A DNA stretch of 59,520 nucleotides from Nocardioides sp. (GCA_051657765.1 JBOFLH010000671.1:1-59520); one strand, 5' to 3'; shown: positions 4,672-52,612, counted from the stretch's first letter. The notes: a model not told the origin generated them from the letters alone. Translations and numbers: made by a program.

Positions 4672-4706
4672 GCCCTAATCGTGTGCGGTGCGACGACGGA
4701 TCCTTC
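4672..4706 (-). promoter_or_regulatory. Class I element promoter
   Basis: GAAGGA-N12-CCGCA-CACGAT-TAGGGC-ATG. Confidence 0.7.
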
Positions 4707-4813
4707 CCGCCGCGGCCCCGAGCCCGGTTCCTAAGGCCGCTGAATCGAGCACGAGGAGAGCCGTCGCGAGCAGAGTCCCGGACGGTCGCGCCGTCCACCT
4801 TCCGAGTGGTCAT

Positions 4814-4833
4814 GCCTACAGACATGCGTAGAC
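4814..4833 (-). promoter_or_regulatory. Class II element promoter
   Basis: GTCTACGCATGTCTGTAGGC-ATG, identical to the 20-mer at 47918..47937. Confidence 0.7.
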
Positions 4834-4835
4834 GG

Positions 4836-7163
4836 CTAAGCGGAGCGTGGTTCCGCTGTTCGTCCTTGCAACCACGCAAGTGCTTCATCACCGCCGGCAA
4901 CCTTCACGGTGAAGTGCGACAGCGCGCCGAGGTAGGTTTGGCGGACCGGCTCGCTGTAGCGGAACTTGCTGGACTTCAGCAGTCTCGGGTCGAGTACGGC
5001 GACCATCCCCGAGTCGCTAATCGAGCGGATCAACCGGCCGGCCGATTGCGCGAGCAGCAGAGCGGCGTCCTCGACGTATACCCTGCGGTCGGCCTCCCAC
5101 TTGTTCATCCCGCCGGCAGTGAGCAGTTCGACTCGGGCGTCATCGACGGGGTTGCCGGCTGCTCGGGCAGGGCGGTCGACGATCACCAGCGTGCAGGTCT
5201 CGCCGCTCGCGTCGATACCGGTCATGTACGACTTGGTGCCGATCAGGACCGCTGCGGGGTCGGCTTTCCAGCGAGCGACCTGGCGGGAGGCCGGCGGGCC
5301 GTCCCACTGCGACAACACGTCCCAGTGGCTATCGAGCCGGCGGAGCCTCGCGGCATACTCCTTACCGGCTGCGGCCGTGGCCGAGAGGATCAGCGCCGAC
5401 CCTCCGTTGGCGGCCACCAGTTCCTCGATGTGACTGGCGGCCCAGCCGGTGTGTTTGCGAGTGTCCAGACGCGGCTTACCACCCCACGAGTTGTCGCTCA
5501 TCAGGGCCGACACGTCGGCGTCGTCCCGGGCGCGAGGAGCGTACAGCACCGACCGCGCGTAGGCGTCGTCGAACGGTGAGGCGTAGGCCGACAGCGAAGC
5601 GGCCATGCCTGCCTCCCGCGGGTAGCTCTCGGGCAGGGTCGCCGACAGCGCGATCACTGCGAGCTTGCGGCGCGGCGGTGGGCCGTCGCCTTCCGCCTCC
5701 TCGGCCTGAGCCTCTTCGGCTTCGAAGTCTCGGACCGACCACAGTTCGTGCGCGATCGCCCCTGAGACGTCGACCGGGGCGTACTTCACACACGGGTAGG
5801 GCGCCCCCTGGCGGGGCGTCTCCACCTCGATCCATCGGGCCGTTCCAGGCTCGTGCAACGAGACGGCTGCCGCTGCCTTCTTCAGCTTCGAGACCCGGTT
5901 CGCCGCGATTTGGGCGCGACGGTCGGTCTTGGCGAATTCGTCCTCACCAAGGTCTTGGCTCGCGTAGGCCACCGCGCGGGTCAGTGCGCTCCCGCAGGCC
6001 TTGGCCCACATCCCGATGGTGGCCGCGGCTGACTCCAGCGGGTCGTCGCCCTCCCCGAGTCGCAGCGTCTTCTCACGCCGGTCGATTCTCGAGATCCAGC
6101 GGCCTATCTCCTTCTCCACTTCGGCGGCGACGAGCTGTCCGGCCTGGCCGAGCCGCCTGAGTTCCTGGCGCCGGAGGTCGCGTCGGCGGGCCGCGGTGTC
6201 GCCCTTCTCTTCTCGGCTGCGGTCGCGGACCAGGTCGGCGAACCCGAGCTTCGACTCGTTGGCGTCCGCGGAGCTGGCTGTCGCGTCGTGGCCGCTGTCG
6301 AGCAGGTTGGCGACCGTGGTGGCGACTTTGCGGATCGCGGGGCCGGAGATCTCCATGGCGCCGTGGTTGCGGACGATACTCGGCAGGCCGTGGGCCTCGT
6401 CGGCGACGATGTGGTCGAAGACACCGAGAGTGCGCGAGCTCAGCACCACCGGGACCGAGTTCGCGGCCTGTACACCAAGCAGGTGGTGGTTGACGATGAC
6501 GATGTCGGCCGCCGCTGCTTCCCGGCGCGCCTTACGCGGCAGGCACGCCTCGGAGAAGGGGCACTTCGCCTCTCCTACGCAGTCGGCAGCCGACGTCGAT
6601 ACCGAATCCCACTCGCCCGGCAGTAGGTCGTCCTCGTATGAGGCCTTGTCGCCGGTCCCGTCGGAGAGTGCTTGCGTCAGGCCCCACGCTGCGGCTCCCG
6701 GTCCGGAAGCCCGCGCGAGCGCCGCCAAGTCGTTCCCGGTGCCGGGCGATCGTTCCCTGGCGGCCTCGACGGCGGCAGCGGTGCACACGTAGTTGCCGAA
6801 CCCCTTGAGCACCGCGACTTTCGGTGCGTAGCCAGTGACCTTCTCGCAGGCACGAGCGACCACCGGGGCGTCCTTGTCGGTGATCTGCGACTGCAACGAG
6901 ATCATCTCAGTCGAGATCACTGTGCGGGCACCCCACTCGGCGGCAGCGACAGCGGCGGGGATCAGGTAGGCCAGGGACTTTCCCGTGCCGGTTGGGGCCT
7001 CCCCAGCAACCTGCTGATCCTCGTCGTCCTGGGCGCCCTCGAAGGCCGTGGCGATGTCATCGAGCAGCGCCAACTGCCCGGGCCGCGGCGGGATGTCTGT
7101 GCGGCCGGTGATCTCTTCGACGCACGCTTCGAGCACGCGCCGGGAGGTTTCCTTGAGGCTCAT
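4836..7163 (-). CDS. DinG/XPD-family ATP-dependent DNA helicase
   Basis: RPGQ, APTGTGKS, four Cys (YVC...DC...KC...AC) consistent with an Fe-S cluster, DEAH, LSATL, QSAGRLIR; start MSLKET at 7163. Confidence 0.9.
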   Translation of the reverse strand: MSLKETSRRVLEACVEEITGRTDIPPRPGQLALLDDIATAFEGAQDDEDQQVAGEAPTGTGKSLAYLIPAAVAAAEWGARTVISTEMISLQSQITDKDAPVVARACEKVTGYAPKVAVLKGFGNYVCTAAAVEAARERSPGTGNDLAALARASGPGAAAWGLTQALSDGTGDKASYEDDLLPGEWDSVSTSAADCVGEAKCPFSEACLPRKARREAAAADIVIVNHHLLGVQAANSVPVVLSSRTLGVFDHIVADEAHGLPSIVRNHGAMEISGPAIRKVATTVANLLDSGHDATASSADANESKLGFADLVRDRSREEKGDTAARRRDLRRQELRRLGQAGQLVAAEVEKEIGRWISRIDRREKTLRLGEGDDPLESAAATIGMWAKACGSALTRAVAYASQDLGEDEFAKTDRRAQIAANRVSKLKKAAAAVSLHEPGTARWIEVETPRQGAPYPCVKYAPVDVSGAIAHELWSVRDFEAEEAQAEEAEGDGPPPRRKLAVIALSATLPESYPREAGMAASLSAYASPFDDAYARSVLYAPRARDDADVSALMSDNSWGGKPRLDTRKHTGWAASHIEELVAANGGSALILSATAAAGKEYAARLRRLDSHWDVLSQWDGPPASRQVARWKADPAAVLIGTKSYMTGIDASGETCTLVIVDRPARAAGNPVDDARVELLTAGGMNKWEADRRVYVEDAALLLAQSAGRLIRSISDSGMVAVLDPRLLKSSKFRYSEPVRQTYLGALSHFTVKVAGGDEALAWLQGRTAEPRSA

Positions 7164-7551: not shown

Positions 7552-7586
7552 GCTCTTAAGGTGTGCGGTCGGTCGGCGTCTGCTCC
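7552..7586 (-). promoter_or_regulatory. Class I element promoter
   Basis: GGAGCA-N12-CCGCA-CACCTT-AAGAGC-ATG. Confidence 0.75.
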
Positions 7587-7592
7587 CCCGGC

Positions 7593-8729
7593 TCAGGCAG
7601 CGGTCTGGTCGATACCGCATAGCGCGTCCTGCCCGGCCCAGCGCTCGATAGTCGCCAGCACCTGCCCGGGCGTGGATCCCAACGGGCTGCCGGGGATGCG
7701 CGCGGCCTGCGCAGCCAGCTTGTGCAGCTTGTTGCGCGACAACTGCCAGCCCTTGGTGATTGCCTTCTGGTCCTCTTCGCTCATCGTCGAGTAGCCCGAG
7801 GTGGCCTCGTGCTCGGCGTCGATGTAGGAGTCAACCAGCGCGTGAACCAGCGGCCGGTCCGAGCTGCTCATCGAGTGCTCCTCGGCGATCCTGGCTCGGG
7901 TGGATTGAACGAACTTGAAGGACGGGCGCGGTTTCGGAGCCACTGCGGCGCAGGCAAGCATGTGCGGCCACGAATCGGGGCGCTGAAGGAGCGCGTGGGC
8001 GGAGTCCTCGGTCTGGTCGTCCCACAGCGCAAGCATCGCGGTGGTGACATCGCCGGGCACTGGTCCGCCGGACCCGTGGACGGTTTCGTACCACGCGCGC
8101 AGGGAGCGGCGTGCGAGCCGGTGGTCGTTCTCGAAGGCTCGCAAGATGTCGTCTCGGTCGCTCATCGAGTCGGGGCGGATGGCGGGGACCGCGCTCATGC
8201 CCTGGCACAGCGACACGGCGGCGATTTGTTCGCGGTCTGAGTCACGCCTGCTGCGGGTGGCCAGCAGGTACTCCTCCAAGATGGTCTCCATCTCGCCTTC
8301 GAGGTACCGCTGGAGGGCTGACGGCGCAGCAGCAAGCAACGGAGACGGCTCGTTGTCGACCAGGCCCGTGGGAGTGCCGTTTCGGGTGCCTGCGCGGGCC
8401 GAGTCGCGCATCGTGGACTTCAGCATCGAGCGGGCGGTCTGCCTCGTCCAGCCAGCGGCCGACGACCCGGCGGCCTTGTCGAGGCAGAAGAAGGTGGAGC
8501 CCTCTTCGAGCACCTTCTCCATGATCGACAGGGTCAACCGGTCGGCCAGGTCTACTCGGAGCTGGTCGGACAGAGATAGTCGGTAGACCACTGCCGAGAC
8601 GACCCTCTCGATGATCTCCGACTGATAGATCACTGCCGCGATCTCCCGACGGACCTCACGCTCGGTGAGGCTCCCCCGGGCGAAACGCTCGATGAGGGCA
8701 TGTACTTGCGAGTCAACTGTTTGGGTCAC
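7593..8729 (-). CDS. Hypothetical protein with a divergent sigma-70 region-2-like N-terminus
   Basis: VDLADRLTLSIMEKV...FCLDKAAGSSAAGWTRQTARSML resembles the DLxQ...FDxxxGxSFxxW pattern; no clear region 4. Confidence 0.45.
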   Translation of the reverse strand: MTQTVDSQVHALIERFARGSLTEREVRREIAAVIYQSEIIERVVSAVVYRLSLSDQLRVDLADRLTLSIMEKVLEEGSTFFCLDKAAGSSAAGWTRQTARSMLKSTMRDSARAGTRNGTPTGLVDNEPSPLLAAAPSALQRYLEGEMETILEEYLLATRSRRDSDREQIAAVSLCQGMSAVPAIRPDSMSDRDDILRAFENDHRLARRSLRAWYETVHGSGGPVPGDVTTAMLALWDDQTEDSAHALLQRPDSWPHMLACAAVAPKPRPSFKFVQSTRARIAEEHSMSSSDRPLVHALVDSYIDAEHEATSGYSTMSEEDQKAITKGWQLSRNKLHKLAAQAARIPGSPLGSTPGQVLATIERWAGQDALCGIDQTAA

Positions 8730-8764
8730 GCCATGAAGGTGTGCGGCTTTGGCGTGGATCCTCC
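8730..8764 (-). promoter_or_regulatory. Class I element promoter
   Basis: GGAGGA-N12-CCGCA-CACCTT-CATGGC-GTG. Confidence 0.75.
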
Positions 8765-8820: not shown

Positions 8821-11800
8821 CTAAGAGCCAGTGACTGGGCCAGGCTCTACCCGCGCCAGGAGGGAAGCTTCCTCGCGGACTCTGACGTCCTCGGGGTTGG
8901 TCGACGCGGTCTTCAGGAAGTCGGACGGGAGCGTGACCTCGACCGGCACCGCGCGGCCGGACAGGTCGGAGTAGATCGCTACAGCGCCGCGGATCACCTC
9001 GCCGGTATCGGGGTCGCGTAGGGCGCGCATCGAGTCCCAGTTGGGGGCGACGCCGCCGACGCCGCCCTGGGTGGCCTTCGCCGTGAGCCGGCGCATCCGC
9101 TCGGGGGTCGGCTCCAGCTTGAATAGCTCGCACGCAGCGGCTGCTTCGGACGGGTCCTCCATCGGCAAGATGAGGCCGCGGCTGATGTAGCCGGCAAGTC
9201 CGGCGTTCAGGGCGTCGGTGACCCGCTGCGTGAACAGCGACACGAGCACACCCATCGAACGCCCCAGCCGGCCAAGCCGTTCCACCTCCGCGCGGCCGGC
9301 CCCGAGAACCACCCACGCTTCGTCGAGCATGACGACGCCACCGCGGCCGGCGACCGCGGTGCCGGAGCCGAATACGATCATCCGGACCAAGGCCAGCGCG
9401 ATCCGTTGCTGGATCGACGCCGCCGGGGCACCGGGTTCGGGTAGGTCGAGGTTCGCTGAGCCGACCTTGATCAACGTGATGCCCTTCGCGGCCGACAGCG
9501 ACTCGCCGTGGGGGTCGAGGCCCGCGATGGCGCGGAACTGCGGACTGGAGGCGAGCATCGACTCGAACCTCTCGATTAGGCCCTCGGGGAGCGCGAGGTC
9601 GCGGCTGGCGATTCTCAACGCCTGGCCGATGCAGGTCGCGCCCTTCGATACGCCGTGGCTCAGCGCATGCTGGAGCGGGACCTCCATGTCGTCCTTGCGG
9701 GTGCCCCACGGGTTGATCGACAGGAGAACCGAGGCCGCCAGCTCTACCCCGACTTCGGGCTGCCGGGAGAACCGAATCGGGTCGAACACCCCGTCGGCCG
9801 AAAGCAGCGAGTCGAGCGAGTACACCTGTCCGCCGCTCAGGGCGACGACGGCACTCAAGTCGCTGGAGGCTTTCGGGTCGAAGATCACGACCGGTCGTTC
9901 CACTAGGGCGAACTGATGGGCCATGCTCAGCATCAAGACGGTGTTCGACGTCGGGACGTACTGCTCGCATAGATAGGTCCGGTCAGGCGAGTCGACGGTG
10001 ATGCAACGCCCCGGCTCGTAGTCCGGGTCACTCGGTTTCACCGGCTCAATGGCGGTGATATAGAGCCACGTCGCGGTCTCTCGCAGGGTAGCGGGCAGCC
10101 TCTCAGCTTTCCGGGGCAGGCGGAACACCGGCTTGTCGGTGGTGAACTTGATCCGGTGTCGGTCCTTGCATGTAACGAGCTGACCGTCGACGTCCCGGTA
10201 GCTGGCCGGTCGGTCCCAGGTTGCCGATGCCTTGATTCCGAGGGATCGGATGAGGTCGAGCGCGTCAGATGCGAGCCTACGGTCGGATAGCGAAAGCTCG
10301 CAGCCCCCTCGCTTCCCGATCGTGCCGTCGGTGTCCATCAGCCCTTGGAGCAACGCCAACCGCTGATCGACCGACGACCGCAGGTAGGCCGTGGGGATGT
10401 GCTTCTCGCCTAGCACGCCAATGGCTCGGAGGTCCGCCTGTAGGCCGTGAGTGCCAACCGTATTGTGGCTACTCGGTATTCGGTGAGCCTGGTAGCCGCC
10501 GTCCTGGATCGCGGCAATGAGTCTTTGCATGTCAGAGTCGCCAGAGTGTTCCGGGGCGTCGGACTGAGTGAAGGTGCCGCTTCCGCTACCTCCATCGCCT
10601 AGCCACGCCCCGAGCACATATGGGGAGACAAGCAGGTCGGCTTCCGGCAACTCAACCGGTTGCGCAGCCCTGATGGCAAAGTTCGCCTGGCTCCCTGGAC
10701 ACCGGATTCCTGCCGCCAGCATCTCGCCCGTGGTCATGCGGGATTCTGGCGCTGCGGAGACTGGCTTGATGTGGTGTTGCTCTGCTAGCCGGACGGCCAG
10801 GCACTTGATCGCGACGGCGACATCGAAGACGAGCACGTTGCACTTCTGGCTGTAGCCAGTGCCGAGCGGCATAACGACCTCGCGGTACGCTGGCGTTGGC
10901 TCGATTCGCGCACTAGCTAGCGACTTTCGGATCCCGCTCACCGTCGTCTTATTCGAGTCCTGCCCGAAGATCAACCGGCTTAGCTCCGGGATTGTGTTCA
11001 TCTGGTCTGTCGGGATGCCATCGGCTAGCGCGCGCTCAACCGCGGCAGTTTTCACCTTCTGCCACGCGCCCCAACGCGTCGCGTTTCCGCCCTTGGTTCC
11101 CTGCCAAACTGCGATCAGCGTCTCCAGCGCTGTGGCTGCCGGGTACAGAAGAACAGGGTCGGTCTTGCGTATCTCATTCTTGGCGAACTGGCGCGGTCGG
11201 GTGGTACTCACCTCCGTGAACGGAGCATCGACCGCCTTGAGCGCAGCCCGAACTGACAGCGCGTTGCGCCACCGCAAGTCCGGGACGGCGGTCAACACGT
11301 ACTCGGTTAGCTCGTCGAGCGTCATATCGCCGGAGGCTTGCTCAGCCAGCGCCAAGAGCTCGGCCACCTGCTCTTGGGCTCTACCCCATACCGCGACCGC
11401 CTTCAGGCGCTTCGGGGCGCGGGTGTAGTTCCGATCCCGCCAACTGGACACGAGCCACTGGTGATCGTAGTCAGCGAAAACCATCTGGCCGTCGGACAGT
11501 GTGATCCGGTACAGCTCCGGAGTCTCATTGACCGGCCAGAGGTTGACGACCCGGCACGGCTTGCCATCCCGGCCGATGACCTCATCGCCCACTCGGAGGG
11601 TACCCATGGTTGCGTAGCCTGTCGGCGTTGGGATGGGTGTGGAGAGACGGACGAGCTTGCCCGCGCCGGTTTGTCCGGGGATCACCATCAGCGGGGCAGC
11701 GTCGGCGGTGCTGGCCGCAGTGGGCGAAACGAAGGCCGGTTGACGGTCCAGTTCGGTGAACCCGATGAGGGCGCCGTCCTGGTCGCCGATCGCGTTCAGC

Positions 11801-13023
11801 GACGGGATCCCCGAGCAGGCGACGGTCTGGATCGGCAGGTCGTGGGTGTTCGGGTTGTCCCGGACCGGGGAGCACAGCATAGTCTCGGCGAGGGCGCCGC
11901 GCTGGCGGAATGCCATCAGCGACAACTTCACGACAGAACCGTCGGGCAGCACCCGGTCGATGTCGCCTACACGGCCGCTCAATGCGACGACAGCAGACGC
12001 GCCAGCCAGAGTCGGAGGCGGTGCGCCACCGGTGGCGTACAGCTCCTCCACCGACTGGAGAGTCGCGACCATTTCCTGTTGTTCGGCACGTTCCATCTTT
12101 CCGTTCGATACCCGCTCGTTGATGTCGTCCATGTGCCGCTTGCGCTGCCGGCGCAGCTCGGACCGGGTGACCGAGCCGGGCTCTACCTGGCCGCGGATCG
12201 ACACCACGAGCGCGCCTGCCTTGAGCAGCGTCGACACCCAGTGGGCCGACGGCGAGGTGGGGTCCATGAACCCGAGGTCGATGTCTTGGACCGAGGCGAA
12301 CGAGATCGCGTGCTGATGGGGCACCGTGACCGGAGTCCAGGTGTCGCAGGCGTCGGTTCCGGCGTCGGAGGCGAGCTGCACCGAGGTAGCGTCGCCGAAA
12401 ATGTGCAGGTGCTCAGCGTGGTTGAGCAGCGGTGTGTCCGGGTAGGAGCCGTGGTTCCACCAGGCGTTGGCAAGCCGGATCTGCTCCTGGGTGGGCTGCA
12501 TCAGCCCGGCGGCGTCGAGGACCGCGGCGACATGCTCTGAGTCGGCGTCGTAGTCCGACAGCGGCGTGGTGCCGGCGACGATCGTCTCGACGACCGAGTC
12601 GACGGCCGCGCGCATCCCCCCGGTTCCGCCGACCTTTGCGACCAGTTTCACCCCGAACAGCAGCAGCCGGCGGTCGGTAGCCACCTGGTAGTTGGCGCGC
12701 AGGTGGTCGGCCAGCGGGTTGTCCGGGGCCGGGGTGAACAGCTTCGGGATGTTCACCAGCAGCAGGTGGGTCTCTCGGTAGGAGCCGCGCGACATCTGCC
12801 GGCGCCCGCCGACCGAAGAGGCCATCCCCGCCAGGCCGGTGTAGGCCGACATCAGCGGGCCCGCGACCTCAAGGCCGTCGGCGGGGGACTTCGCGTGAAC
12901 GACGGGCGACATCGGGACCACCCGGTACATCCATACCGAGTTGTCGGTCCCCATCAGTCTGCCGTCGGACAGCCGGCCACGGAGCTTCGTCGGCCACGAG
13001 GGCACCTCGGTGATATCAGGCAT
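8821..13023 (-). CDS. VirB4-like conjugation ATPase containing an intein
   Basis: Walker A GQTGAGK|T split by an intein, IFDPK, MLDEAW, FTQR; follows the TcpC-like gene, whose end overlaps the ATG at 13023. Confidence 0.85.
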   Translation of the reverse strand: MPDITEVPSWPTKLRGRLSDGRLMGTDNSVWMYRVVPMSPVVHAKSPADGLEVAGPLMSAYTGLAGMASSVGGRRQMSRGSYRETHLLLVNIPKLFTPAPDNPLADHLRANYQVATDRRLLLFGVKLVAKVGGTGGMRAAVDSVVETIVAGTTPLSDYDADSEHVAAVLDAAGLMQPTQEQIRLANAWWNHGSYPDTPLLNHAEHLHIFGDATSVQLASDAGTDACDTWTPVTVPHQHAISFASVQDIDLGFMDPTSPSAHWVSTLLKAGALVVSIRGQVEPGSVTRSELRRQRKRHMDDINERVSNGKMERAEQQEMVATLQSVEELYATGGAPPPTLAGASAVVALSGRVGDIDRVLPDGSVVKLSLMAFRQRGALAETMLCSPVRDNPNTHDLPIQTVACSGIPSLNAIGDQDGALIGFTELDRQPAFVSPTAASTADAAPLMVIPGQTGAGKLVRLSTPIPTPTGYATMGTLRVGDEVIGRDGKPCRVVNLWPVNETPELYRITLSDGQMVFADYDHQWLVSSWRDRNYTRAPKRLKAVAVWGRAQEQVAELLALAEQASGDMTLDELTEYVLTAVPDLRWRNALSVRAALKAVDAPFTEVSTTRPRQFAKNEIRKTDPVLLYPAATALETLIAVWQGTKGGNATRWGAWQKVKTAAVERALADGIPTDQMNTIPELSRLIFGQDSNKTTVSGIRKSLASARIEPTPAYREVVMPLGTGYSQKCNVLVFDVAVAIKCLAVRLAEQHHIKPVSAAPESRMTTGEMLAAGIRCPGSQANFAIRAAQPVELPEADLLVSPYVLGAWLGDGGSGSGTFTQSDAPEHSGDSDMQRLIAAIQDGGYQAHRIPSSHNTVGTHGLQADLRAIGVLGEKHIPTAYLRSSVDQRLALLQGLMDTDGTIGKRGGCELSLSDRRLASDALDLIRSLGIKASATWDRPASYRDVDGQLVTCKDRHRIKFTTDKPVFRLPRKAERLPATLRETATWLYITAIEPVKPSDPDYEPGRCITVDSPDRTYLCEQYVPTSNTVLMLSMAHQFALVERPVVIFDPKASSDLSAVVALSGGQVYSLDSLLSADGVFDPIRFSRQPEVGVELAASVLLSINPWGTRKDDMEVPLQHALSHGVSKGATCIGQALRIASRDLALPEGLIERFESMLASSPQFRAIAGLDPHGESLSAAKGITLIKVGSANLDLPEPGAPAASIQQRIALALVRMIVFGSGTAVAGRGGVVMLDEAWVVLGAGRAEVERLGRLGRSMGVLVSLFTQRVTDALNAGLAGYISRGLILPMEDPSEAAAACELFKLEPTPERMRRLTAKATQGGVGGVAPNWDSMRALRDPDTGEVIRGAVAIYSDLSGRAVPVEVTLPSDFLKTASTNPEDVRVREEASLLARVEPGPVTGS
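9943..11655 (-). mobile_element. 571-aa class 3 intein with LAGLIDADG homing endonuclease
   Basis: Starts LVRLSTPIPTPTG; block B DHQW; PYVLGAWLGDG and LLQGLMDTDG; block F RCITVD; ends VPTSN followed by +1 Thr. Confidence 0.9.
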
Positions 13024-14020
13024 CTTCCTCACCCTTCTCAGGCGGAGCCGGCGCGACGGTGCGTCCGACGACGGCGTTGCCGAACTTCTTCAGCGACGGC
13101 CCGGCACCTTCGCCGCCCCAGGCCACCACTACCGGGGCGGCCGAGCCGGCCTTGTCGACCAGCACGTCGAAGCTGACGGTCGGAGCCTCGTCGCCCTCTT
13201 CGAGAGGGGAGTCGGCCCACGTGATCGAGAACGCGACCGATACGACGACCTGCTTCGGCGCGACATCTTCGCGGTCGGCGACCTCGACGTCGTCGTCCCA
13301 CCGGCCAAACGCTGCCCCCGTCTTCTGGTCAGTCAGCTTCGCCCCGATCAAGGGCACGTAGGCGTGGTCAGCGGCCCCGTCGCCGACGGCGATCCGCAAG
13401 GCGTCGGGATCGCCCGAACTGTAGGCAGTGGCCCAGGACGCGACGGCGGCTTCGATCGGCTCGCTCACCTGCACCTGGGTCTGGCCGGGCCAGATGTCGC
13501 CCTCCCAGGTCGCGTCGGATGGCGCTCGGGGAATCAGCGCCGGCTCGCCGAGCACGACCACCCCGGCCTCCGCGGAGACACCGAGGGTGACGGTGGAGTC
13601 GAAGAGGGCCCCTGAGACGGAAGCAAGGGCGAAACGGTGTGTCTCGATGCGGTCAGGGCCGGACTTGGTCGTATCGGCGGAAAGCCAGTCGACAACGCGA
13701 CCGCCGGGCAGAGGCGACGGGTCAGCGCCGAGCCAGTCGGCGATCGCGACCTTGGCCTCGGCCTTGGTTTCAGCGAAGGTGCCGCCGGAAGCGGCAGGCG
13801 TGGTGTCTGCCGCTGTGAAGTGCGACATCACCAGCAGGATGTTCCCGAAGATCGAAAACGGCGCGAGGATCAGCCCGGCCCACACGCACCGTCGGTAACG
13901 GCGGGCTCGCCTCGCCAACGCGTCGGCGTCGGGCAGCCCGGCCTTCGGCACCTCCTCGGCAGCCTCCCACCACGGTCGATTGACCGTGATGGTCCCGGTC
14001 TGCTTCCGGCGGCCCAGCAT
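13016..14020 (-). CDS. TcpC/VirB8-like conjugation membrane protein
   Basis: Single N-terminal TM followed by two similar-sized soluble domains; directly upstream of VirB4; TAATG coupling. Confidence 0.6.
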   Translation of the reverse strand: MLGRRKQTGTITVNRPWWEAAEEVPKAGLPDADALARRARRYRRCVWAGLILAPFSIFGNILLVMSHFTAADTTPAASGGTFAETKAEAKVAIADWLGADPSPLPGGRVVDWLSADTTKSGPDRIETHRFALASVSGALFDSTVTLGVSAEAGVVVLGEPALIPRAPSDATWEGDIWPGQTQVQVSEPIEAAVASWATAYSSGDPDALRIAVGDGAADHAYVPLIGAKLTDQKTGAAFGRWDDDVEVADREDVAPKQVVVSVAFSITWADSPLEEGDEAPTVSFDVLVDKAGSAAPVVVAWGGEGAGPSLKKFGNAVVGRTVAPAPPEKGEEDA

Positions 14021-14453: not shown

Positions 14454-14473
14454 CCCCACAGCCATGCGTAGAC
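14454..14473 (-). promoter_or_regulatory. Class II element promoter (VirB4 operon)
   Basis: GTCTACGCATGGCTGTGGGG, about 30 nt upstream of the ATG at 14421. Confidence 0.7.
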
Positions 14474-15080: not shown

Positions 15081-15115
15081 ACACCTAAGGTGAGCGGTCC
15101 GGCCGCAGATGCTCC
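15081..15115 (-). promoter_or_regulatory. Class I element promoter (leadered)
   Basis: GGAGCA-N12-CCGCT-CACCTT-AGGTGT. Confidence 0.65.
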
Positions 15116-23351: not shown

Positions 23352-23386
23352 GCCTGGAAGGTGTGCGGCTGGTCTGGGAATGTCCG
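23352..23386 (-). promoter_or_regulatory. Class I element promoter (GACA subtype)
   Basis: CGGACA-N12-CCGCA-CACCTT-CCAGGC-ATG. Confidence 0.75.
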
Positions 23387-24993: not shown

Positions 24994-25035
24994 ATAGGGT
25001 TCTATGCCGCGGGCCGGGACCCGGCGGCAGAGCTA
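24994..25035 (-). promoter_or_regulatory. Class III element promoter
   Basis: CTCTGCCGCCGG-N11-CGGCATAGA-N7-GTG; 31/42 ungapped identity with 28965..29006. Confidence 0.6.
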
Positions 25036-25851
25036 CACCCCGACGACGTCGAAGTGCTCTCGGCAGACTCTCTCGAAGACGCCCCGGACCACCGCGACCG
25101 TCGCATAGCTGGCGGATCGCGACAGCCCGAGTTCGCGGCCGATCCTGACAGCGTTCGGCACCCCGGTCAGCGCGTCGGCGCACCACAAGCGGGCCACGTC
25201 CGCGGTCACCGTGGAGATCTCCGAGCACCTCCTGATCGCCAGGCTCACCAGCCGTTCTGCGTCGACCGGGTCGAGAAGCGTCTCGGCTGCCTCAGTGGCT
25301 GCGATGTCGTGGCCGTTGGCGATGTCGATCGTCGTCGGATCGAGGAGATCTTCGGGCCGGCAGTACATGCCCTGGCGGACGATGTCGGCGCGAGTCTGAG
25401 CGAGCCGGTCGTTGGTCGCCTTGACGACTTCGATGTTCGAGGGCTCGCGGTGCAGCTCGGTCAGGAGCGCGTCGCGGGTCTTGCGCAGCTCACGGCGGCG
25501 CCGCGACGCGCCAGCGGATCCGGCCATCGAGTTGAACCCGGCCGAGGAGTCCACGAATGCGCTGACCGTAGACCTGATGCGAAAGTCGAGGAGGCCACCG
25601 AGAGCGACCGCCTCATCGAGTCGGTCCGGGTGCTCGACCATCTCCTCGATGAGCGACCAGGCGGTCTGCCGCCCCAGTGACGCGAAGTCATCGAGCCAGG
25701 TGTTCCGGTCGACCCGGTAGTGCACGCATAGGCGGCCGGCGACCGACCGGATGTGCGGGTCGATGGACTTCAGGAACGCCTCGGCCAGCGGCCGGCGCTC
25801 CGGAAGCGGTGCAGCCGAGATAGCGCGAAGCTGGTCTGCCCACGCGCTCAT
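25033..25851 (-). CDS. Divergent sigma-70 group-3-like (FliA/WhiG/SigF-like) factor
   Basis: Region 2-like IRSVA...DDFASLG...FRIR; region 3-like LLTELHREPSNIEV; region 4 HTH IGRELGLSRS. Confidence 0.65.
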   Translation of the reverse strand: MSAWADQLRAISAAPLPERRPLAEAFLKSIDPHIRSVAGRLCVHYRVDRNTWLDDFASLGRQTAWSLIEEMVEHPDRLDEAVALGGLLDFRIRSTVSAFVDSSAGFNSMAGSAGASRRRRELRKTRDALLTELHREPSNIEVVKATNDRLAQTRADIVRQGMYCRPEDLLDPTTIDIANGHDIAATEAAETLLDPVDAERLVSLAIRRCSEISTVTADVARLWCADALTGVPNAVRIGRELGLSRSASYATVAVVRGVFERVCREHFDVVGV

Positions 25852-26243
25852 TGCGGCCTCGCGGCGAGCGGGAAACCGGGCCACGGCGGTGCGCTCTTGG
25901 GCTGCTGGATGTCCAACCACGCCAGGAACCTCCGGCCGCCGGCTCGCGGGTCGAGCAGCCACGCCACGGTGACGCGGTGGGCCGGTGGGCAGCCGGGGAC
26001 CCGGGCGGCCAGCTCGGCCATCAGCCGCTTGGTGGTTCCGGGGCCGACTCCCTTGCAGGACATGTGCAACTGTTGCACAAGGATCCGACGCAGCGGCTTC
26101 CCTTCCTCCCGAGCTGCGGCTTCGAGGACGTCCGTCGGGGTCAGCAGACCCTCGGCCAGCGCCACCAGGTATTCGGCCCGGGTCGCCCGGGCTGTTGCAA
26201 GCGCCTCCCGAGCGCGTACGACGTCGGGTTGGGGTGATGTCAC
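25848..26243 (-). CDS. mIHF/sIHF-like H2TH nucleoid-associated protein
   Basis: AREALATARATRAE...TDVL...VQQLHMSCKGVGPGTTKRLMAEL parallels the mIHF pattern ALEKA..AR..RAE...V..LL.S.PGVG....IM..L. Confidence 0.65.
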   Translation of the reverse strand: MTSPQPDVVRAREALATARATRAEYLVALAEGLLTPTDVLEAAAREEGKPLRRILVQQLHMSCKGVGPGTTKRLMAELAARVPGCPPAHRVTVAWLLDPRAGGRRFLAWLDIQQPKSAPPWPGFPLAARPQ

Positions 26244-26283: not shown

Positions 26284-27306
26284 TCAAACCGTCAACCATC
26301 CGGTTCTCAACCTCCCCGCGTTCGACCACCCCGCCATCGCGTCCGGCAAGACCCGAAGCGCAGCCTCGGCCCGAGCGGCACCAAGCCGGTCCCTCGGGTA
26401 CTCCTCGCGGTACCGCTTCAGCAGCTCCTCGATGTCGCGGATCGCTCCGAGCTCGGCAGCCACCCGACGGACCTTCGGGCCGACGTGCGGGTCACCGATC
26501 TCCCGCCTGATCATCGTCGGAGCGTCCCGCCTGACCGCGGCGCACAGGTACTTCATCGGGTCTACCTTCACGAAGGCGTGCGGCTCCAGCATTAGGTCGA
26601 TCATCGGGTCGATCATGCCGGGGTGCCCGGACTCCTCCGCAGTGGCTGACCGCCCGTAGACCATCTCGTCGAGCACTCCCCGCAGCTTCGTCTCGTCGAG
26701 CAGGTCGCGGCTTTCGCCGGTGTGCCGCCCGATCTCGTCACGGATGCTGGCGTGGCTACGGACTAGCGCCCGCCAGGCGTGGGGCTCCAGGTAGGTTCTC
26801 AGCGCCCACCGGGCAGCCTCGCCGGCCTCGACGAGTTCGGCGATCCGACGCTCGACGGCCATCGGGGACTCGACGGGCACCCAGACGTGGTCGTCGGCGA
26901 CCACTGCGTTGCATAGATCAGGGTCGGCTCCGAGCAGCACCGAGCTCGTCCGGTGGTGGCCGAGTCCGGCGGTCGCGAAGGACGCGCGCTGCCGGCGGCC
27001 CGGGCGAATGAAGCTCACCGATGACCGCGACCAGTCCAGTCGCAACGGGAACAGCGTCCTGCCCCGCGACTTCCGACCGAGGTTCGCCCTCGGGACCACC
27101 CACTCCCAGGTGGGCGCCACCCAGAGTCCGCCGCCAGCGGGAAGATCGGCCGAGGACAGCGCTGCGGCATCCCGGCCAACCAGCACCGCGTGCAGCAACG
27201 CGCTCAACGGCTCCAGCGATCGGTGACGGCCTTCGGTGAACTCCACGCCGAGTGCGTCGGCGGCTAGCTTGCGCAGCCGTGCGCTGCCTCCTGCCCAGCC
27301 GCTCAT
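26284..27306 (-). CDS. Hypothetical protein; C-terminal half weakly sigma region-2/3-like
   Basis: ARWALRTYLEP...FVKVDPMKYLCAAVRRDA..MIRR; in the operon with mIHF and the sigma-like gene. Confidence 0.45.
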   Translation of the reverse strand: MSGWAGGSARLRKLAADALGVEFTEGRHRSLEPLSALLHAVLVGRDAAALSSADLPAGGGLWVAPTWEWVVPRANLGRKSRGRTLFPLRLDWSRSSVSFIRPGRRQRASFATAGLGHHRTSSVLLGADPDLCNAVVADDHVWVPVESPMAVERRIAELVEAGEAARWALRTYLEPHAWRALVRSHASIRDEIGRHTGESRDLLDETKLRGVLDEMVYGRSATAEESGHPGMIDPMIDLMLEPHAFVKVDPMKYLCAAVRRDAPTMIRREIGDPHVGPKVRRVAAELGAIRDIEELLKRYREEYPRDRLGAARAEAALRVLPDAMAGWSNAGRLRTGWLTV

Positions 27307-28964: not shown

Positions 28965-29006
28965 GCGGGTATCTATGCCGTGGCTCGGAAACCGGCGGCA
29001 GAGTTA
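28965..29006 (-). promoter_or_regulatory. Class III element promoter
   Basis: CTCTGCCGCCGG-N11-CGGCATAGA-N7-GTG. Confidence 0.6.
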
Positions 29007-29034
29007 GCCGCGTGGCTGGTGCAAACGAGTCCAT

Positions 29035-29069
29035 GCCGAGATGGTGTGCGGCTGTCTCACCGATGTCTG
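29035..29069 (-). promoter_or_regulatory. Class I element promoter (GACA subtype)
   Basis: CAGACA-N12-CCGCA-CACCAT-CTCGGC-ATG. Confidence 0.65.
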
Positions 29070-29088
29070 CGGTCGGGGATCTGTTCAC

Positions 29089-29108
29089 GCCGACAGACAT
29101 GCGTAGAC
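29089..29108 (-). promoter_or_regulatory. Class II element promoter
   Basis: GTCTACGCATGTCTGTCGGC-GTG. Confidence 0.7.
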
Positions 29109-29516: not shown

Positions 29517-29551
29517 GGAGCATCCCCCGCAGCACCGCACACCATCAGTTC
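29517..29551 (+). promoter_or_regulatory. Class I element promoter (primase-helicase)
   Basis: GGAGCA-N12-CCGCA-CACCAT-CAGTTC-GTG. Confidence 0.75.
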
Positions 29552-33503: not shown

Positions 33504-33538
33504 GGAGAGAACACGGCGGAACCGCACACTATCGGGGC
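33504..33538 (+). promoter_or_regulatory. Class I element promoter
   Basis: GGAGAG-N12-CCGCA-CACTAT-CGGGGC-ATG. Confidence 0.75.
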
Positions 33539-34245: not shown

Positions 34246-34997
34246 TCGCGCTTGCCGACATCGTCGAAGACATAGCCGACGAGCTGGGCTGGCAGGTCAG
34301 CCCGTTGGAGGGCGCCGGCAGCTGGTCGCTACCGCGAGTGCTTGGTCCCGACGGGGAGCGACTCGCCTTCTACCGGGATCTTCGAAGCCGAATATTGATC
34401 CGCGGTCTGCTGCCGGGCGAGCACGAACAACGCGCTCTCGTCGAAACACCATCGATCAGCCTCGCGGGCGACCGCCCAGCTTCCGTCATCGCTAGCGCGA
34501 TTAACCGCCGGCTACTGCCGGTGTATCGGGAGCGGGTAGCCGAGGCTCTCGAGAGTATTCGGCGATTCGAAGCCGGGGAGGAAGCCCAGCGATCGCTTGG
34601 TGTCGAGCTTGCTGAGCTGTCTGGCGCCGAATACGACGAAGACCAGGGCCGGATCTGCTCGGCCCGCGGGCAGTGGCACGGCAAAGCTGCGGTCGAGCGC
34701 GGTGGGGCCCGTGTGCATCTCGAAGGCTCTCTCTCGGCCGAGGTTGCACGGGCCGTGTTTGCCGCTCTTGGCCGGCAAGCACTAACGGAGAGAGATTCCC
34801 CGCGGTCCGTACACAGTCTTGGCATGAGCAACCGCGAGCTGGATCTGGCCCGGTACGCCGGTCTCGACCATGTGGCGCTGGCCTGCCGCCCGGACAACGC
34901 CGCCGCTCGTGCCGTCATCGAGCACCACGGCGGGGTGAGCACCGAAAAGTCTCCTGACCTGCTCCAGAACTCAATCGAGGTGAACAGTGATGAGTAA
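34242..34997 (+). CDS. Hypothetical protein; last 57 aa resemble a GNAT C-terminal fragment and have their own leaderless start at 34824
   Basis: GLDHVALACRPDNAAARAVIEHHGG; class I motif at 34789..34823. Confidence 0.6.
   Translation: MIALADIVEDIADELGWQVSPLEGAGSWSLPRVLGPDGERLAFYRDLRSRILIRGLLPGEHEQRALVETPSISLAGDRPASVIASAINRRLLPVYRERVAEALESIRRFEAGEEAQRSLGVELAELSGAEYDEDQGRICSARGQWHGKAAVERGGARVHLEGSLSAEVARAVFAALGRQALTERDSPRSVHSLGMSNRELDLARYAGLDHVALACRPDNAAARAVIEHHGGVSTEKSPDLLQNSIEVNSDE
34789..34823 (+). promoter_or_regulatory. Class I element promoter internal to an ORF
   Basis: AGAGAG-N12-CCGTA-CACAGT-CTTGGC-ATG. Confidence 0.55.
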
Positions 34998-38209: not shown

Positions 38210-38244
38210 GGAGTATCCGCCGGCCAACCGCGCACTGTAGGGGC
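38210..38244 (+). promoter_or_regulatory. Class I element promoter (leadered)
   Basis: GGAGTA-N12-CCGCG-CACTGT-AGGGGC, then RBS GAAGGGAG and ATG 38266. Confidence 0.65.
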
Positions 38245-38557: not shown

Positions 38558-38592
38558 GGAGCATCCGACTGCGGTCCGAACACTGTCGAGTC
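38558..38592 (+). promoter_or_regulatory. Class I element promoter
   Basis: GGAGCA-N12-CCGAA-CACTGT-CGAGTC-ATG. Confidence 0.65.
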
Positions 38593-40153: not shown

Positions 40154-40340
40154 TGTCCGACCAACTCGAAGCCGAGATCCTATGGAGCATCCGAGGACCC
40201 TCCGGACACTATTTGGGTGTCCGGCCGCGGGGCATAGTGCCCAGGGAGACCCTGGGGCGAGGGGCTTCAGGGGTGTTCCCCCTCTCATGAAGCGCCCCGC
40301 GGCCGGACTCGACCTCTCCCGCCGAGCCGAGCCGAGCCGG

Positions 40341-40375
40341 GGAGCAGCCTGACTCCAGCCGCACACCTTCATGGC
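40341..40375 (+). promoter_or_regulatory. Class I element promoter (sigma gene)
   Basis: GGAGCA-N12-CCGCA-CACCTT-CATGGC-ATG. Confidence 0.8.
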
Positions 40376-41050
40376 ATGAACCTCCTTCAAGACCGCCCCG
40401 ACATGATCTTCCCGGCGGCCACCGAACAGCCCGACGAGTTCGTTCCCGAGCGTCATTGGCGGTGGCTGGTCAGCCGCGCTCTCGTGCTCGATACCGATTC
40501 CAACCTCTCGCGAGACGACATCGCCCAGGAAGGCCTCATCGCGATGTGGCTGTCCCACGGGAAGTTCAAGCCCGGCAAGGGCACGAGCTACCTCGGCTGG
40601 CTGCACATGGTCGCCGACCGGCGTATGGCCGAGATCGCTTCCGGCCGGAAACAACCCGTCGGCCACCAGCCTGTCCCCGGGCACTGGGAGCCCCGTCACG
40701 GCGAGCGAATGTTCTCCCTTGGCGCCATGGACGAAGGCTCCCCCGCCTACGAGCGGATTGTCGGCCGCGACGCGCTTGACTCGGTCGAGGACGCCTACCA
40801 CCACGGCGTCATTCACGAAGCCCTTGCCCAGCTCCCCCAGGCTGAGCGCGAGTACGTCGTGCTGAGGTTCTGGGGAGGTCTCGAACCACGCGACCGTTCC
40901 CAACGCGGCAGCACTCGCGCCCAACGCGCCGCCTACGACCAGCGGGCAGCTACGGAGCGCGAACTGAGCGGCGGAATCGACCACACACAGTGGCCTCGGA
41001 TCCGGCAGACCCTCGCTGGTGAACTCGCCAACCTGGAGCCCAGCCGATGA
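40376..41050 (+). CDS. Sigma-70 family factor (ECF-sized) with atypical region 4
   Basis: DDIAQEGLIAMW...FKPGKGTSYLGWL (region 2); ALAQLPQAEREYVVLRFW (region 4.1); canonical 4.2 HTH not evident. Confidence 0.8.
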   Translation: MNLLQDRPDMIFPAATEQPDEFVPERHWRWLVSRALVLDTDSNLSRDDIAQEGLIAMWLSHGKFKPGKGTSYLGWLHMVADRRMAEIASGRKQPVGHQPVPGHWEPRHGERMFSLGAMDEGSPAYERIVGRDALDSVEDAYHHGVIHEALAQLPQAEREYVVLRFWGGLEPRDRSQRGSTRAQRAAYDQRAATERELSGGIDHTQWPRIRQTLAGELANLEPSR

Positions 41051-41234: not shown

Positions 41235-41269
41235 CGGACATCCCCGGATCAGCCGCACACCATACGAGC
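41235..41269 (+). promoter_or_regulatory. Class I element promoter (GACA subtype)
   Basis: CGGACA-N12-CCGCA-CACCAT-ACGAGC-ATG. Confidence 0.75.
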
Positions 41270-41677: not shown

Positions 41678-41958
41678 GCGATCTCGCCGAGCGGCTACGC
41701 GAAGCCGCCATCGCCACGCTCCGGGTGCCCACCGAAGACCGCCTCGACTCACCCCTGCGGGCGCTCATCCCCGACGGCCGCATGCCGGATAGTCAGACGC
41801 TGCAAGCGGCCGCCCGTCTCACTGGAACCCCCGTCCGCCTCGGAGGGCGCGGAGCCACGGCCGCGTCCGCGAAGACCCGATCCCACATCCAGCGTTGGGT
41901 CGTCAGAAATGGGCTTCACCGCCGGGGAGCAAACGACGTCGCTCCGGACACCATTTAG
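41674..41958 (+). CDS. Hypothetical protein
   Basis: ATGA coupling; SPLRALIPDG...LTGTP. Confidence 0.6.
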   Translation: MSDLAERLREAAIATLRVPTEDRLDSPLRALIPDGRMPDSQTLQAAARLTGTPVRLGGRGATAASAKTRSHIQRWVVRNGLHRRGANDVAPDTI

Positions 41959-42391: not shown

Positions 42392-42411
42392 GTCTACGCA
42401 TATGTATTGAC
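42392..42411 (+). promoter_or_regulatory. Class II element promoter (coupling-protein/relaxase operon)
   Basis: GTCTACGCATATGTATTGAC-ATG. Confidence 0.7.
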
Positions 42412-47040: not shown

Positions 47041-47075
47041 GAGACATGCCCTGCTCGGCCGCACACCTTACGAGC
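47041..47075 (+). promoter_or_regulatory. Class I element promoter (GACA subtype)
   Basis: GAGACA-N12-CCGCA-CACCTT-ACGAGC-ATG. Confidence 0.75.
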
Positions 47076-47917: not shown

Positions 47918-47937
47918 GTCTACGCATGTCTGTAGGC
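47918..47937 (+). promoter_or_regulatory. Class II element promoter (NERD/FtsK operon)
   Basis: GTCTACGCATGTCTGTAGGC-ATG. Confidence 0.75.
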
Positions 47938-51600: not shown

Positions 51601-52117
51601 ACGGGCCAGCTTCGGTCAGTTGATGGCGGCGTTGAAGATGCCGACCGAGGTCCCTGAGCAGCCGGAATTGATCCCAGCGGGCCGCGGCATGTACGAGGGC
51701 AACGGCCGTTCGTCGGAGCTGATCCAGACCTGGTTCGAGGGCTCGCAGGCTGTGTTCGCCGAGCACCTAGCCGCACGCATCGAGCCGCTGGCCGACACCG
51801 AGAAGCTGAACATGTCGGGGTTCGCCGAGCCGGAACTGGAGTTCGACGGCGCGGTGCTGCCGGGGCAGGTCATCGCTCCCCCGGTTGAGCCGGCGACCGA
51901 GGTGGATCTGGGCGAGTTCTCGTTCTCGCTGGACGACCTGGAGCTGGAAGGCGATGCGGAAGACCCGTTCGGGCCGGCCCCGGCCTCGGCGTCTGACGAT
52001 GACCCGTTCGCCGATCAGCCGGGAGTGAACTTCATCTTTGGCCCTGACGACGACCCGTTCGCGTCGCCGCCACCGCCGGTACCCGTGTCTGTTCCGGACG
52101 ACGACCCCTTCGCCTGA
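48632..52117 (+). CDS. FtsK/SpoIIIE-domain membrane ATPase
   Basis: Several N-terminal TMs; HVLVSGAAGGGKS, ADPSKG, VLDEF, LATQ, GRG; acidic DDPF-repeat tail. Confidence 0.85.
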   Translation: MTRRAAAKQTPRSGMVAPAIVAVGVVAAVPAAWFGGATFMVLWLAAVAASWSAPPVALTGKKDARGYATPADGRELAMMQRYRFWSALKWGLVFPTRWARPGVPAFVVSKALRRRPTEESSVLAIWIFGAWLAAIAWFVPHIFPQVSWVEAPFAMILATEVAAARRATVVADDRSPGVRLNTLRPTLTSSWVPGVVAGVSAIAGAVAAGWLGGPVWWALGAFGGAGLGLAPWWVDQSLQGWRDLGAARVEWAPRWQMLKHDPTPRLTARKRVGPATVDTFTAPGGTGAAGYWALAPKITPTFGGGVELAVLSCPATSPNLPPMPGTKDALEFRVVTWSTGGLPDLTDPGLDPEVAALFIECALVWAADSLGYGRPILGEVFALAEEGTDKQAFAFNVHLPDGPPMSYIRSSLRKPIATSLNTEVLVDHRAGLIYAGALTDGSTSFSAESQVTQKAMTDMATEDTWNDRWAAVLKQDVNPPTIEHATYADDALANGALVHRQAFKVRQGVDPYDFYGLEPKLKTVLAAAPFVAIGGWSTQGRVGERHPLAFTVYWSAETIPMSPTQLRPVGGQAPLWVLNGQASAAFRAARLAQPEVYDVRCLTGTASRGHIWQMRLRLYGGVTLDDTRRKSETIRQAWGVEWFRVDTAPDGCVVVAGVSPTGATFANARDEDYCVQLDWNQSFIDAGVVGVGGLAPKLTAVDRLPFNERVHVLDFDLPSGLSPTEVKAARKKLENSSRNAFVEVKPSPDGKAGNFRLLACEVNPMPEMAPFDFGLEPTDHRIPFATGLTGEPVTYDNAKDAHVLVSGAAGGGKSILVQNLVYGALIRGWDLWIADPSKGGVDFNFAGPYAKGMATTVWQAKGMVAAIYAEVTRRKGINSAHNCGNYRDLPDDVRYPHVLVVLDEFTSMMMPEPVPKAMDDSQETAAAIESVKAVNAARAYIGTYVGKIVREARSTGFTVVLATQALKADTLSKIPGANDLKDNMSRIIVGRASFGQLMAALKMPTEVPEQPELIPAGRGMYEGNGRSSELIQTWFEGSQAVFAEHLAARIEPLADTEKLNMSGFAEPELEFDGAVLPGQVIAPPVEPATEVDLGEFSFSLDDLELEGDAEDPFGPAPASASDDDPFADQPGVNFIFGPDDDPFASPPPPVPVSVPDDDPFA

Positions 52118-52215
52118 CAGCGCGGCCGGTGGTGCCCGGCGAGCGCGCGACGGTCTCGGGCGGTTGGCCTGTTTGCCCAGACCGCGGCGTGGAGCGTCCC
52201 GCCTCTGCGCCGGCC

Positions 52216-52524
52216 TCAGCGGATCCGGATAACACTGCCGGCAGTGAACGAGATGTCGGCCAATCCGGCGTAGCCACGTGGGGAACGCGCATTGAGCTTG
52301 ACCCGGATCCCCGAGCGGTTCCCCTTTCCGAATGGAGCGGTAGCGGGCGAGCTTGATGATGTAGGCGGTTTGCTTCGCGGCCCAGTTCCGCCCTGCACCG
52401 AGAACTGGATCGCGGCCCGATAGCCCCAGGTGTAGGGCGCGGTGGCGGCGGCCTGGGCCGGTTCGATCGACCCAAGTGTGCCGATGAGCGCGGCGGCTAG
52501 TAGTGCTGCGATTCGAGTGTGCAT
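52216..52524 (-). CDS. Small secreted protein (possibly with compensating indels)
   Basis: AGAAGGAG RBS; signal peptide ending AQA. Confidence 0.55.
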   Translation of the reverse strand: MHTRIAALLAAALIGTLGSIEPAQAAATAPYTWGYRAAIQFSVQGGTGPRSKPPTSSSSPATAPFGKGNRSGIRVKLNARSPRGYAGLADISFTAGSVIRIR

Positions 52525-52577
52525 CCTCTCTCCTTCTGGACCCCCCCCCGCTGCTCCATATGCGGGGGCCCCCGGGG

Positions 52578-52612
52578 AGAGAAGACTCCCTCCGTCCGCA
52601 CACCGTGGTGGC
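52578..52612 (+). promoter_or_regulatory. Class I element promoter
   Basis: AGAGAA-N12-CCGCA-CACCGT-GGTGGC-ATG. Confidence 0.7.

Follow-up and report, generated by a model that had tools for sequence, protein, structure and literature searches.

Candidate private promoter classes and sigma-like proteins of an actinobacterial megaplasmid family

Phages such as SPO1 time their transcription by a sigma factor cascade, in which gp28 is followed by gp33/34, and the late sigma factor gp55 of phage T4, which lacks sigma4, reads promoters that consist of a -10 box only. We analysed a 59,520-nucleotide stretch of DNA, the whole of contig C671 of Nocardioides sp. GCA_051657765.1 (JBOFLH010000671.1:1-59520; 702 contigs, 66% GC), hereafter the window, for which an initial annotation had proposed a phage-like sigma cascade on an integrative and conjugative element (ICE). 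Plasmid sigma factors have been called rare (PMC6751061). In that report, the divergent sigma SigN (ZpdN), encoded by the Bacillus subtilis plasmid pBS32, recognises a consensus of its own and controls a regulon confined to the plasmid; it activates its own promoter, which is nested among other promoters, and it is LexA-controlled and lethal. Hierarchical, feedback-containing transfer control is described for the MfsR-TciR-BisR-BisDC cascade of ICEclc (PMC9286271) and for the AcaCD regulon of IncA/C plasmids with its hijacking islands (PMC4588540). The conjugative megaplasmid pMP7017 of Bifidobacterium breve carries tRNA genes, canonical TTGACA/TATAAT promoters and a plasmid-specific upstream motif (PMC10832533).

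Compared with these systems, the window resembles pBS32 in its plasmid-type, divergent candidate sigma and its nested promoters; unlike the SigN case of one sigma and one class, its family has four unrelated-looking core sigma-like genes, three promoter classes and more than 100 sites per element, most of them predicted to be leaderless. As in SPO1 and T4, several apparently private promoter classes are sorted by function and sigma-like proteins without a recognisable sigma4 occur; the nucleotide-metabolism genes and tRNA arrays of the family are likewise phage-like. Unlike phages, these elements encode pilus and secretion ATPases, the scanned set of shared proteins contains no capsid, portal or clear terminase, and the order of expression proposed below comes from the layout of genes and sites. 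As in ICEclc and IncA/C elements, element factors would control transfer, and an excisionase-like gene (xis, on contig C684) lies under the element's own promoter class. Whereas those systems use activators together with the host holoenzyme, the candidates here are sigma-fold proteins and the conserved bases lie at -10. The VirB4-like ATPase of pMP7017 is 30.5% identical to the C-terminal part of the one encoded at 8821; profiles of the sigma-like proteins 25033, 26284 and 7593 found no match in pMP7017, in a search that had no positive control and did not include the fourth family, C340:9029.

On sequence grounds, the window belongs to the pACHL01 (NC_011879)-type megaplasmid family of actinobacteria. 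It shares orthologous core genes and motif classes with pACHL01 and seven other Arthrobacter, Pseudarthrobacter, Paenarthrobacter and Curtobacterium megaplasmids; those are free circular replicons, unlike this copy, which is probably integrated. Further related genomes are labelled G104, G105 and G106, and the element contigs of the window's own genome amount to 115.7 kb, leaving 4.56 Mb. In the literature covered, which was incomplete, we found no description of several sigmas with promoter classes on a conjugative element. The system is real, family-wide and apparently undescribed, with a predicted sigma function.

All three motifs are real and lie far above background, at fixed distances from start codons as the initial annotation had described. 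Class I has the form GG(G/A)GA(G/C)(C/A)A-N11/13-CCGCACAC-N9-ATG/GTG; of the 17 copies in the window, where 16 had been claimed, 11 are exact with the start codon placed at N9 and six have one mismatch. Class II (GTCTACGCAT-N10) occurs exactly five times and class III (CTCTGCCGCCGG-N11-CGGCATAGA-N7-GTG) exactly twice. A class I matrix trained on 16 sites from contigs other than the window found 11 window sites at 18 bits or more, versus 20 in the other 4.56 Mb. At 14 bits or more there were 15 window sites, two of them noise-like (one at 55842), where the frequency in the rest of the genome predicts 1.55 and ten shuffles gave 0-5; four degenerate copies scored below 14 bits. Full-form patterns of classes I, II and III, written after the sites had been inspected, matched 6, 9 and 6 times in the element contigs (two of these five contigs had been assigned by the motif itself) and 0, 0 and 0 times in the remaining 4.56 Mb. 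The cargo (15.2-22.3 kb) and defence (53-59 kb) blocks hold no exact start-linked copy, in agreement with the earlier claim.

On the minus strand, exact class I cores lie at 4681..4688, downstream of a class II site; at 7561..7568, at a small gene ahead of a DinG-like helicase; at 8739..8746, at the predicted leaderless start of the sigma-like gene 7593..8729; at 23361..23368, ahead of gene 22347-23351; and at 29044..29051, nested upstream of parA. A leadered copy with one mismatch (15090..15097, -) precedes the conserved gene 14563-15045. The plus strand carries exact cores at 29535..29542 (ahead of gene 29552-32632), 33522..33529, 40359..40366 (ahead of sigma gene 40376), 41253..41260 (ahead of gene 41270), 47059..47066 (ahead of gene 47076) and 52596..52603. 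Its one-mismatch copies are found at 34807..34814, 38228..38235 (leadered), 38576..38583, 40202..40209 and 41944..41951, the last two within the first and second copies of a 76-nt repeat.

Class II sites do precede all three putative transfer operons: 14464..14473 (-) heads the 14421-13016-VirB4-like operon and is leadered, whereas 42392..42401 (+) and 47918..47927 (+) lie at the predicted leaderless starts of the ATPase 42412-44877 and of the 47938-NERD-FtsK/coupling-protein-like operon. The other two, on which the initial annotation was silent, head a small-gene cluster (4824..4833, -; a small open reading frame follows, then the class I core 4681-4688) and the parA operon (29099..29108, -). 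The two class III sites stand, likewise as claimed, before parA (28972..29003, -) and before the PD-(D/E)XK (RecB-type) nuclease 23521-24993 (25001..25032, -). Absent from the initial annotation was the finding that class II, class I and class III sites are nested, from the outermost to the innermost, within 140 nt (28972..29108, -) ahead of the parA-26284-25848-25033 operon.

Cores that have no adjacent start codon allowed the promoter character of the motifs to be assessed. Class I cores of this kind keep a purine at +9 in 55 of 60 cases in pACHL01, 54 of 56 in the related record NZ_CP099467, 38 of 39 in G105 and all six in the own element. A start led by a Shine-Dalgarno (SD) sequence follows within 90 nt for 30/60, 33/56, 29/39 and 1/6 of these cores, respectively, compared with 15-20% of random sites. 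Among the 13-16 class II cores per element that are not next to a start codon, 92-100% show a purine at the same offset; one base earlier the figure is 8-12%. Classes I and III are accompanied by -35-like words that depend on the element; class II has no clear -35. The class III word, for instance, is CTGCCGCCG in the own element, CCGTC in the Arthrobacter plasmids, CCTGT in G105 and ACAGCCG in G104. The kept +1 purine, the enrichment ahead of SD-led genes and the lack of full-form matches elsewhere in the genome support reading the motifs as element-specific and promoter-like.

The classes recur throughout the family. CCGYACAC-N7-9-RTG occurs 124 times in pACHL01, 124 times in NZ_CP099467 and 29 times in the own element contigs, versus 30 times in the other 4.56 Mb; 52 of the 60 matches in G105 fall on its element contig. 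Orthologues with protein identities of about 25-45% retain the sites: a class III-like GCATAG/T lies ahead of parA in 8 of the 9 orthologues with a placed start and ahead of the nuclease in 5 of 7, and of five full-length orthologues of the 42412 ATPase, four are preceded by class II. In an Acidimicrobiaceae relative the class I position is taken by CGCCCTCT, again ahead of the orthologues of 7593 and C340:9029.

Sorting of classes by gene function was followed in four elements, in which many of the listed sites have no gene label. Class III lies ahead of genes for an SNF2 helicase, Pol III alpha, NrdI, ThyA and dNMP kinase, and class II ahead of the VirB4 operon and genes for the pilus ATPase, prepilin peptidase, T2SSF, lytic and FtsK-like proteins. 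The proposal that class II marks transfer genes therefore holds family-wide. Class I heads more than 100 accessory genes, and the earlier view of it as the replication class fails at this scale, where class III instead heads replication and nucleotide-metabolism genes. That view traces to a local swap, since the conserved gene 29552 is under class III in six elements and under class I in two. Several promoter classes sorted by function are thus found, with blurring in Curtobacterium.

The four sigma-like open reading frames named in the initial annotation all exist in the window, and each of their products shows some sigma-domain evidence from Pfam, profiles, Foldseek or exhaustive structural alignment (VIA), or a complex model. 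Their ranking changed. The one called clear, 40376..41050 (+), is indeed a sigma factor (Sigma70_r2, E 8.6e-9) of the extracytoplasmic function (ECF) type, with sigma2 and sigma4 and no sigma3; it is accessory and lies under a class I site. We found no orthologue of it in 11 related element sequences, two of which carry 124 class I sites each, so it would be unable to read the family-wide motifs and was rejected as the class I reader. RpoD- and FliA-like genes present on some plasmids were rejected as core on account of their patchy distribution. The core set is instead 25033, 26284, 7593 and, outside the window, C340:9029. Each is present in one main copy in all six large elements examined, and also in the Acidimicrobiaceae relative; the relatives' annotations call them 'hypothetical' or 'HTH domain'.

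By profile, model and hhalign, 25033..25851 (-) is a full sigma2-sigma3-sigma4 protein of FliA/SigB-like architecture, with the three domains in the order of Sigma70 proteins. Its family comprises at least 187 proteins (HMMER), and the family profile matches FliA (1rp3, E 1.7e-4), SigB, SigA and many other sigmas; Sigma70_r3 matches 25 of 144 members. The model has a predicted local distance difference test (pLDDT) score of 92.5, all Foldseek rows listed are sigma chains, and hhalign to sigma alignments gives 97.4%. Searched with this query, 100 host relatives gave no match. Word-index searches returned no homologue of 25033 or 7593 and two matches for 26284, and the Curtobacterium plasmid contains extra partial 25033-like matches.

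The AlphaFold2 model of 26284..27306 (-; pLDDT 83.5) comprises a sigma1.2-like helix, a beta-rich insert, sigma2 and a helical C-terminal domain. In VIA its top six rows are sigma chains, led by domain 2 of Mycobacterium tuberculosis SigA (Z 7.9, root-mean-square deviation 3.7, 121 of 122 residues), which points with moderate strength to a sigma1.2/sigma2 fold. The insert occupies the position of the non-conserved region of group 1 sigmas. The chain terminates after a single helical domain (272-333), which can be aligned with sigma3 positions and also with winged-helix proteins, and no separate sigma4 was seen. There was no usable match in Atlas, and hhalign to the 25033 family gave only 4%. 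We regard as moderately supported that 26284 folds like sigma1.2-sigma2 without sigma4.

The remaining two core proteins are more tentatively linked to sigma factors. For 7593..8729 (-), sigma2-like with a long helical C-terminal domain, residues 1-122 were modelled with the host beta' clamp helices. The complex scored 0.65 (best control 0.01) and passed a mark reached by 116 of 157 solved pairs and 2 of 215 mismatched pairs; model runs agreed in at least 93% of contacts, with partner pLDDT of at least 81. In the predicted interface the clamp tip is contacted by residues 28-36 and 63-75, with helices positioned like sigma1.2 and sigma2.2. Because the sigma2-clamp type of complex has already been solved, this pass speaks for likeness and not for binding: the docking predicted for 7593 on the beta' clamp resembles that of sigma2. 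Its nearest named Atlas cluster (score 0.94) has Sigma70_r2 on 47% of members. The family of C340:9029-10003, a gene under a class I site, reaches 58-62% (P about 1e-4) in hhalign to sigma2-3 alignments, versus at most 1.5% for eight control families; two of five members match Sigma70_r2 (best E 0.004), and SigW appears at E 0.41. The C-terminal domains of C340:9029 and 7593 are weakly similar (P 0.012-0.022).

We propose, with a probability of roughly 0.7, that in this family of giant, probably conjugative elements each class of motif acts as a private promoter, which the host core polymerase would recognise when loaded with one of the element's own sigmas, class I serving accessory, class III replication and class II transfer regulons. 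Each core would be an extended -10 box, with +1 falling on the A/G that begins the start codon in leaderless genes and on a purine at the same position ahead of a leader in the others. The predicted 5' ends lie 9 nt past CCGYACAC, 9-10 nt past CTACGCATG and 7-9 nt past CGCATAG. Expression may proceed from class I through class III to class II, and the nested II/I/III sites at 29.0-29.1 kb would form the hub; we put such an ordered relay slightly short of even odds. A pairing of readers with classes is more tentative. The 25033 protein would read the bipartite class III, since it has sigma4 and its gene lies in a class III operon, and would thereby amplify itself. Class II would fall to 26284, because this protein shows no separate sigma4 and is predicted to be co-transcribed with 25033, and class II is without a clear -35. 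Both 7593 and C340:9029 are under class I sites and share weakly similar C-terminal domains, which is why one or both would read class I. The ECF gene 40376 would be a passenger. A complete phage-style programme with three new sigma4-less lineages, in which C340:9029, tagged for export by its N-terminal GGQF leader (see below), is a starter sigma shipped with the DNA for immediate class I transcription in the recipient, seems unlikely.

Several observations weigh against this proposal. The related elements are kin, and counts across them are non-independent. The class III +1 purine signal is weak (0.3-0.8). The best VIA row of 26284 is below the tool's caution line of 8, the first non-sigma row reaches Z 6.1, and Foldseek and PDB profile searches with this protein gave no sigma. 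For 7593 there was no Pfam or PDB match, and hhalign to sigma alignments did no better than controls. Four core sigma-like genes face three classes, so the mapping cannot be one-to-one. The 'transfer' genes are named by homology, as no relaxase was found in a search for TrwC.

Other points of this kind concern the classes themselves, and lend weight to the view that one element sigma (of the 25033 or the 7593/C340:9029 type) reads a shared GCA(C/T) core. The other sigma-like proteins would then be co-factors, anti-sigmas or core-sequestering decoys, the classes would differ in strength or activator need, and there would be no relay. A (C/G)GCA(C/T) core is indeed common to all classes, which could be variants read by fewer factors, and three of the four proteins have no recognisable sigma4. 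Orthologues swap classes, as seen for 29552, and the genes for ThyA and the small subunit of ribonucleotide reductase (RNR) are under class II in G105. In the Curtobacterium plasmid the classes merge: hardly any class II word is left, 151 sites are of the GCATAG type, and one of these heads the NERD/coupling operon, though all four core sigma-like genes are present. The Leifsonia element, against a clean class scheme, has GCCACATG on transfer genes. A single reader is at odds with the class-specific +1 spacing and -35 words, with the functional sorting kept in four elements and with an operon preceded by a tandem of sites from different classes, which fits different readers best; we consider it improbable.

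Very improbable, in our judgement, is that the motifs are operators for element activators that recruit host SigA or an alternative sigma, like SetCD, AcaCD and BisDC of proteobacterial elements. The actinobacterial -10 consensus is TANNNT, and in the own element -12 to -7 reads CACNNT, which keeps A-11 and T-7 of that box. Activator control is the published norm for ICEs and IncA/C plasmids (PMC9286271, PMC4588540), and the distant relative pMP7017 is credited with canonical promoters and a plasmid-specific 34-bp factor-binding motif (PMC10832533). On the other side, the conserved bases occupy the -10 itself and not a position upstream, the T lies at -8, not -7, in pACHL01, outside the element contigs start-linked class I cores are about 40-fold less frequent, and four sigma-like core genes would be left unexplained. 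That the motifs are translation or RNA-leader signals, such as an alternative ribosome-binding site, is hardly credible: two thirds of the class I cores do sit 7-10 nt before a start codon, but the remaining third or so still have the +1 purine and are over-represented before SD-led genes, copies also occur among tRNA arrays, and -35-like words lie upstream at fixed spacing.

The element reading of the window draws on its relatives. In a tblastn search of PLSDB, 7593, 25033 and 26284 found eight, seven and eight records, every one of them a circular plasmid, 375-608 kb in size, of Arthrobacter, Pseudarthrobacter, Paenarthrobacter and Curtobacterium. Sixteen of 35 tested window genes have orthologues in both pACHL01 and NZ_CP099467 (E < 1e-6), with the order largely kept. 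A genome scan added nine loci, including ones in Arthrobacter, Leifsonia, Tersicoccus, Pseudoclavibacter and an Acidimicrobiaceae metagenome-assembled genome. Among the family-shared genes (70 scanned, Pfam) are those for type IV pilus machinery, Pol III alpha, RNR, ThyA, dihydrofolate reductase, dUTPase, ligases and Lsr2. Neither these 70 proteins (Pfam) nor 24 proteins searched against PHROGs included a capsid, portal or clear terminase, whole records lying outside the scans; the 42412 ATPase gave one weak terminase row and no passing stretch. A phage reading of the element was rejected as unsupported by these scans. In the window, AAA_10 and FtsK_SpoIIIE matches identify a VirB4-like ATPase and a coupling-protein-like gene, as in a conjugative element; TrwC is absent from four complete relatives and from the own element contigs, a search that did not extend to other relaxase families.

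The label ICE, used in the initial annotation, may fit this copy in part. The window ends in an attR-like site (59133..59295, +), made up of arm-type repeats and the 3' part of tRNA-Lys, and since this copy ends there, it is probably integrated. The repeats recur only on contig C684 (1-6958), which carries a full tRNA-Lys (attL-like), the class I-led xis, an integrase and an ArdC gene. C684 could be the left end of the element or a satellite borrowing its promoters; the latter alternative arises because C684 also contains window 29206-29548, class I and III sites included, as a 93% copy. In G106, a 47% identical integrase lies beside tRNA-Val and adjoins core genes. The label does not extend to the complete relatives, which are circular megaplasmids, and a tyrosine integrase match was not found in pACHL01. 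With free circular relatives on one side and the att-like ends here and the integrase in G106 on the other, the family therefore has free and probably integrated members. A separate locus in G104 (C1, 386-479 kb of a 1.09-Mb contig) has a 25033 homologue, a few transfer-gene homologues and at least 17 CCGC(A/G)CA(C/T)GT sites; it is a second, more distant relative and possibly integrated. Two apparently new start-linked motifs in the G106 contig were discarded as an artefact, being a CRISPR-type repeat.

Around the parA operon, a ParA-like ATPase (27303..28964, -) is the first gene and a conserved small gene without Pfam hit (25848..26243, -), which we take to resemble actinobacterial IHF, lies between the two sigma-like genes. 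The start codons that follow the class II site (29088) and the class I site (29034) lie in one common frame, which is not that of parA, giving an overlapping upstream reading frame at 28964-29088. Between the divergent parA and 29552, an AT-richer intergenic region with alternating purine-pyrimidine repeats (29180-29440), duplicated on C684, is origin-like and may represent an origin of replication (oriV) or transfer (oriT). The conserved gene 29552-32632 (1026 aa, no Pfam hit) is presumably primase/helicase-like, by its motifs. The 76-nt repeat mentioned above (40184-40259 and 41926-42001, 78% identical) opens with a class I site that has no start codon next to it, runs on into a conserved GC-rich segment, and is possibly a small RNA.

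The VirB4-like ATPase gene (8821..13032, -) contains an intein with LAGLIDADG that is missing from the Arthrobacter orthologues. A 910-aa protein of the class I region (34987-37719, no Pfam hit) has homologues on 912 plasmids, many from Klebsiella and Providencia. Defence-like genes (AbiJ-like/DUF559, NUDIX-containing, AbiH; 54163-58915) adjoin the att-like end. Arrays of 41 and 37 tRNA genes occur in the family, and contig C72 of the own genome holds one of 26 genes (9328-13232); C222 has an array 82% identical to it, which hints that the assembly includes another related element or strain.

Dozens of otherwise unrelated proteins begin with a leader of the pattern RxPxGxPxGGQF..HxEP (GGQF leader), 47 in pACHL01, 24 in NZ_CP099467 and seven in the own element. 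The latter are encoded in the window at 22347-23351, 41270-41677 and 47076-47597 and on C72, C340 and C684, and include the C340:9029 sigma-like protein and the ArdC anti-restriction protein. Most GGQF-leader genes of the family are under class I (7/7 own, 28/47 pACHL01, 20/24 NZ_CP099467, 0/3 G105). The same pattern found none in the rest of the own genome, and a description was not found in the literature. The leader is a possible export or packaging tag.

If the proposal is true, large conjugative elements insulate and stage their expression by sigma factors of their own, as lytic phages do, and not by activators alone. The motif classes predict gene function on elements of the family. Three unannotated sigma lineages would be added, and an explanation would be at hand for hundreds of genes now called 'hypothetical' on pACHL01 and other cultured megaplasmids. 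The family would then offer a test system as well as candidate orthogonal sigma-promoter pairs for actinobacteria.

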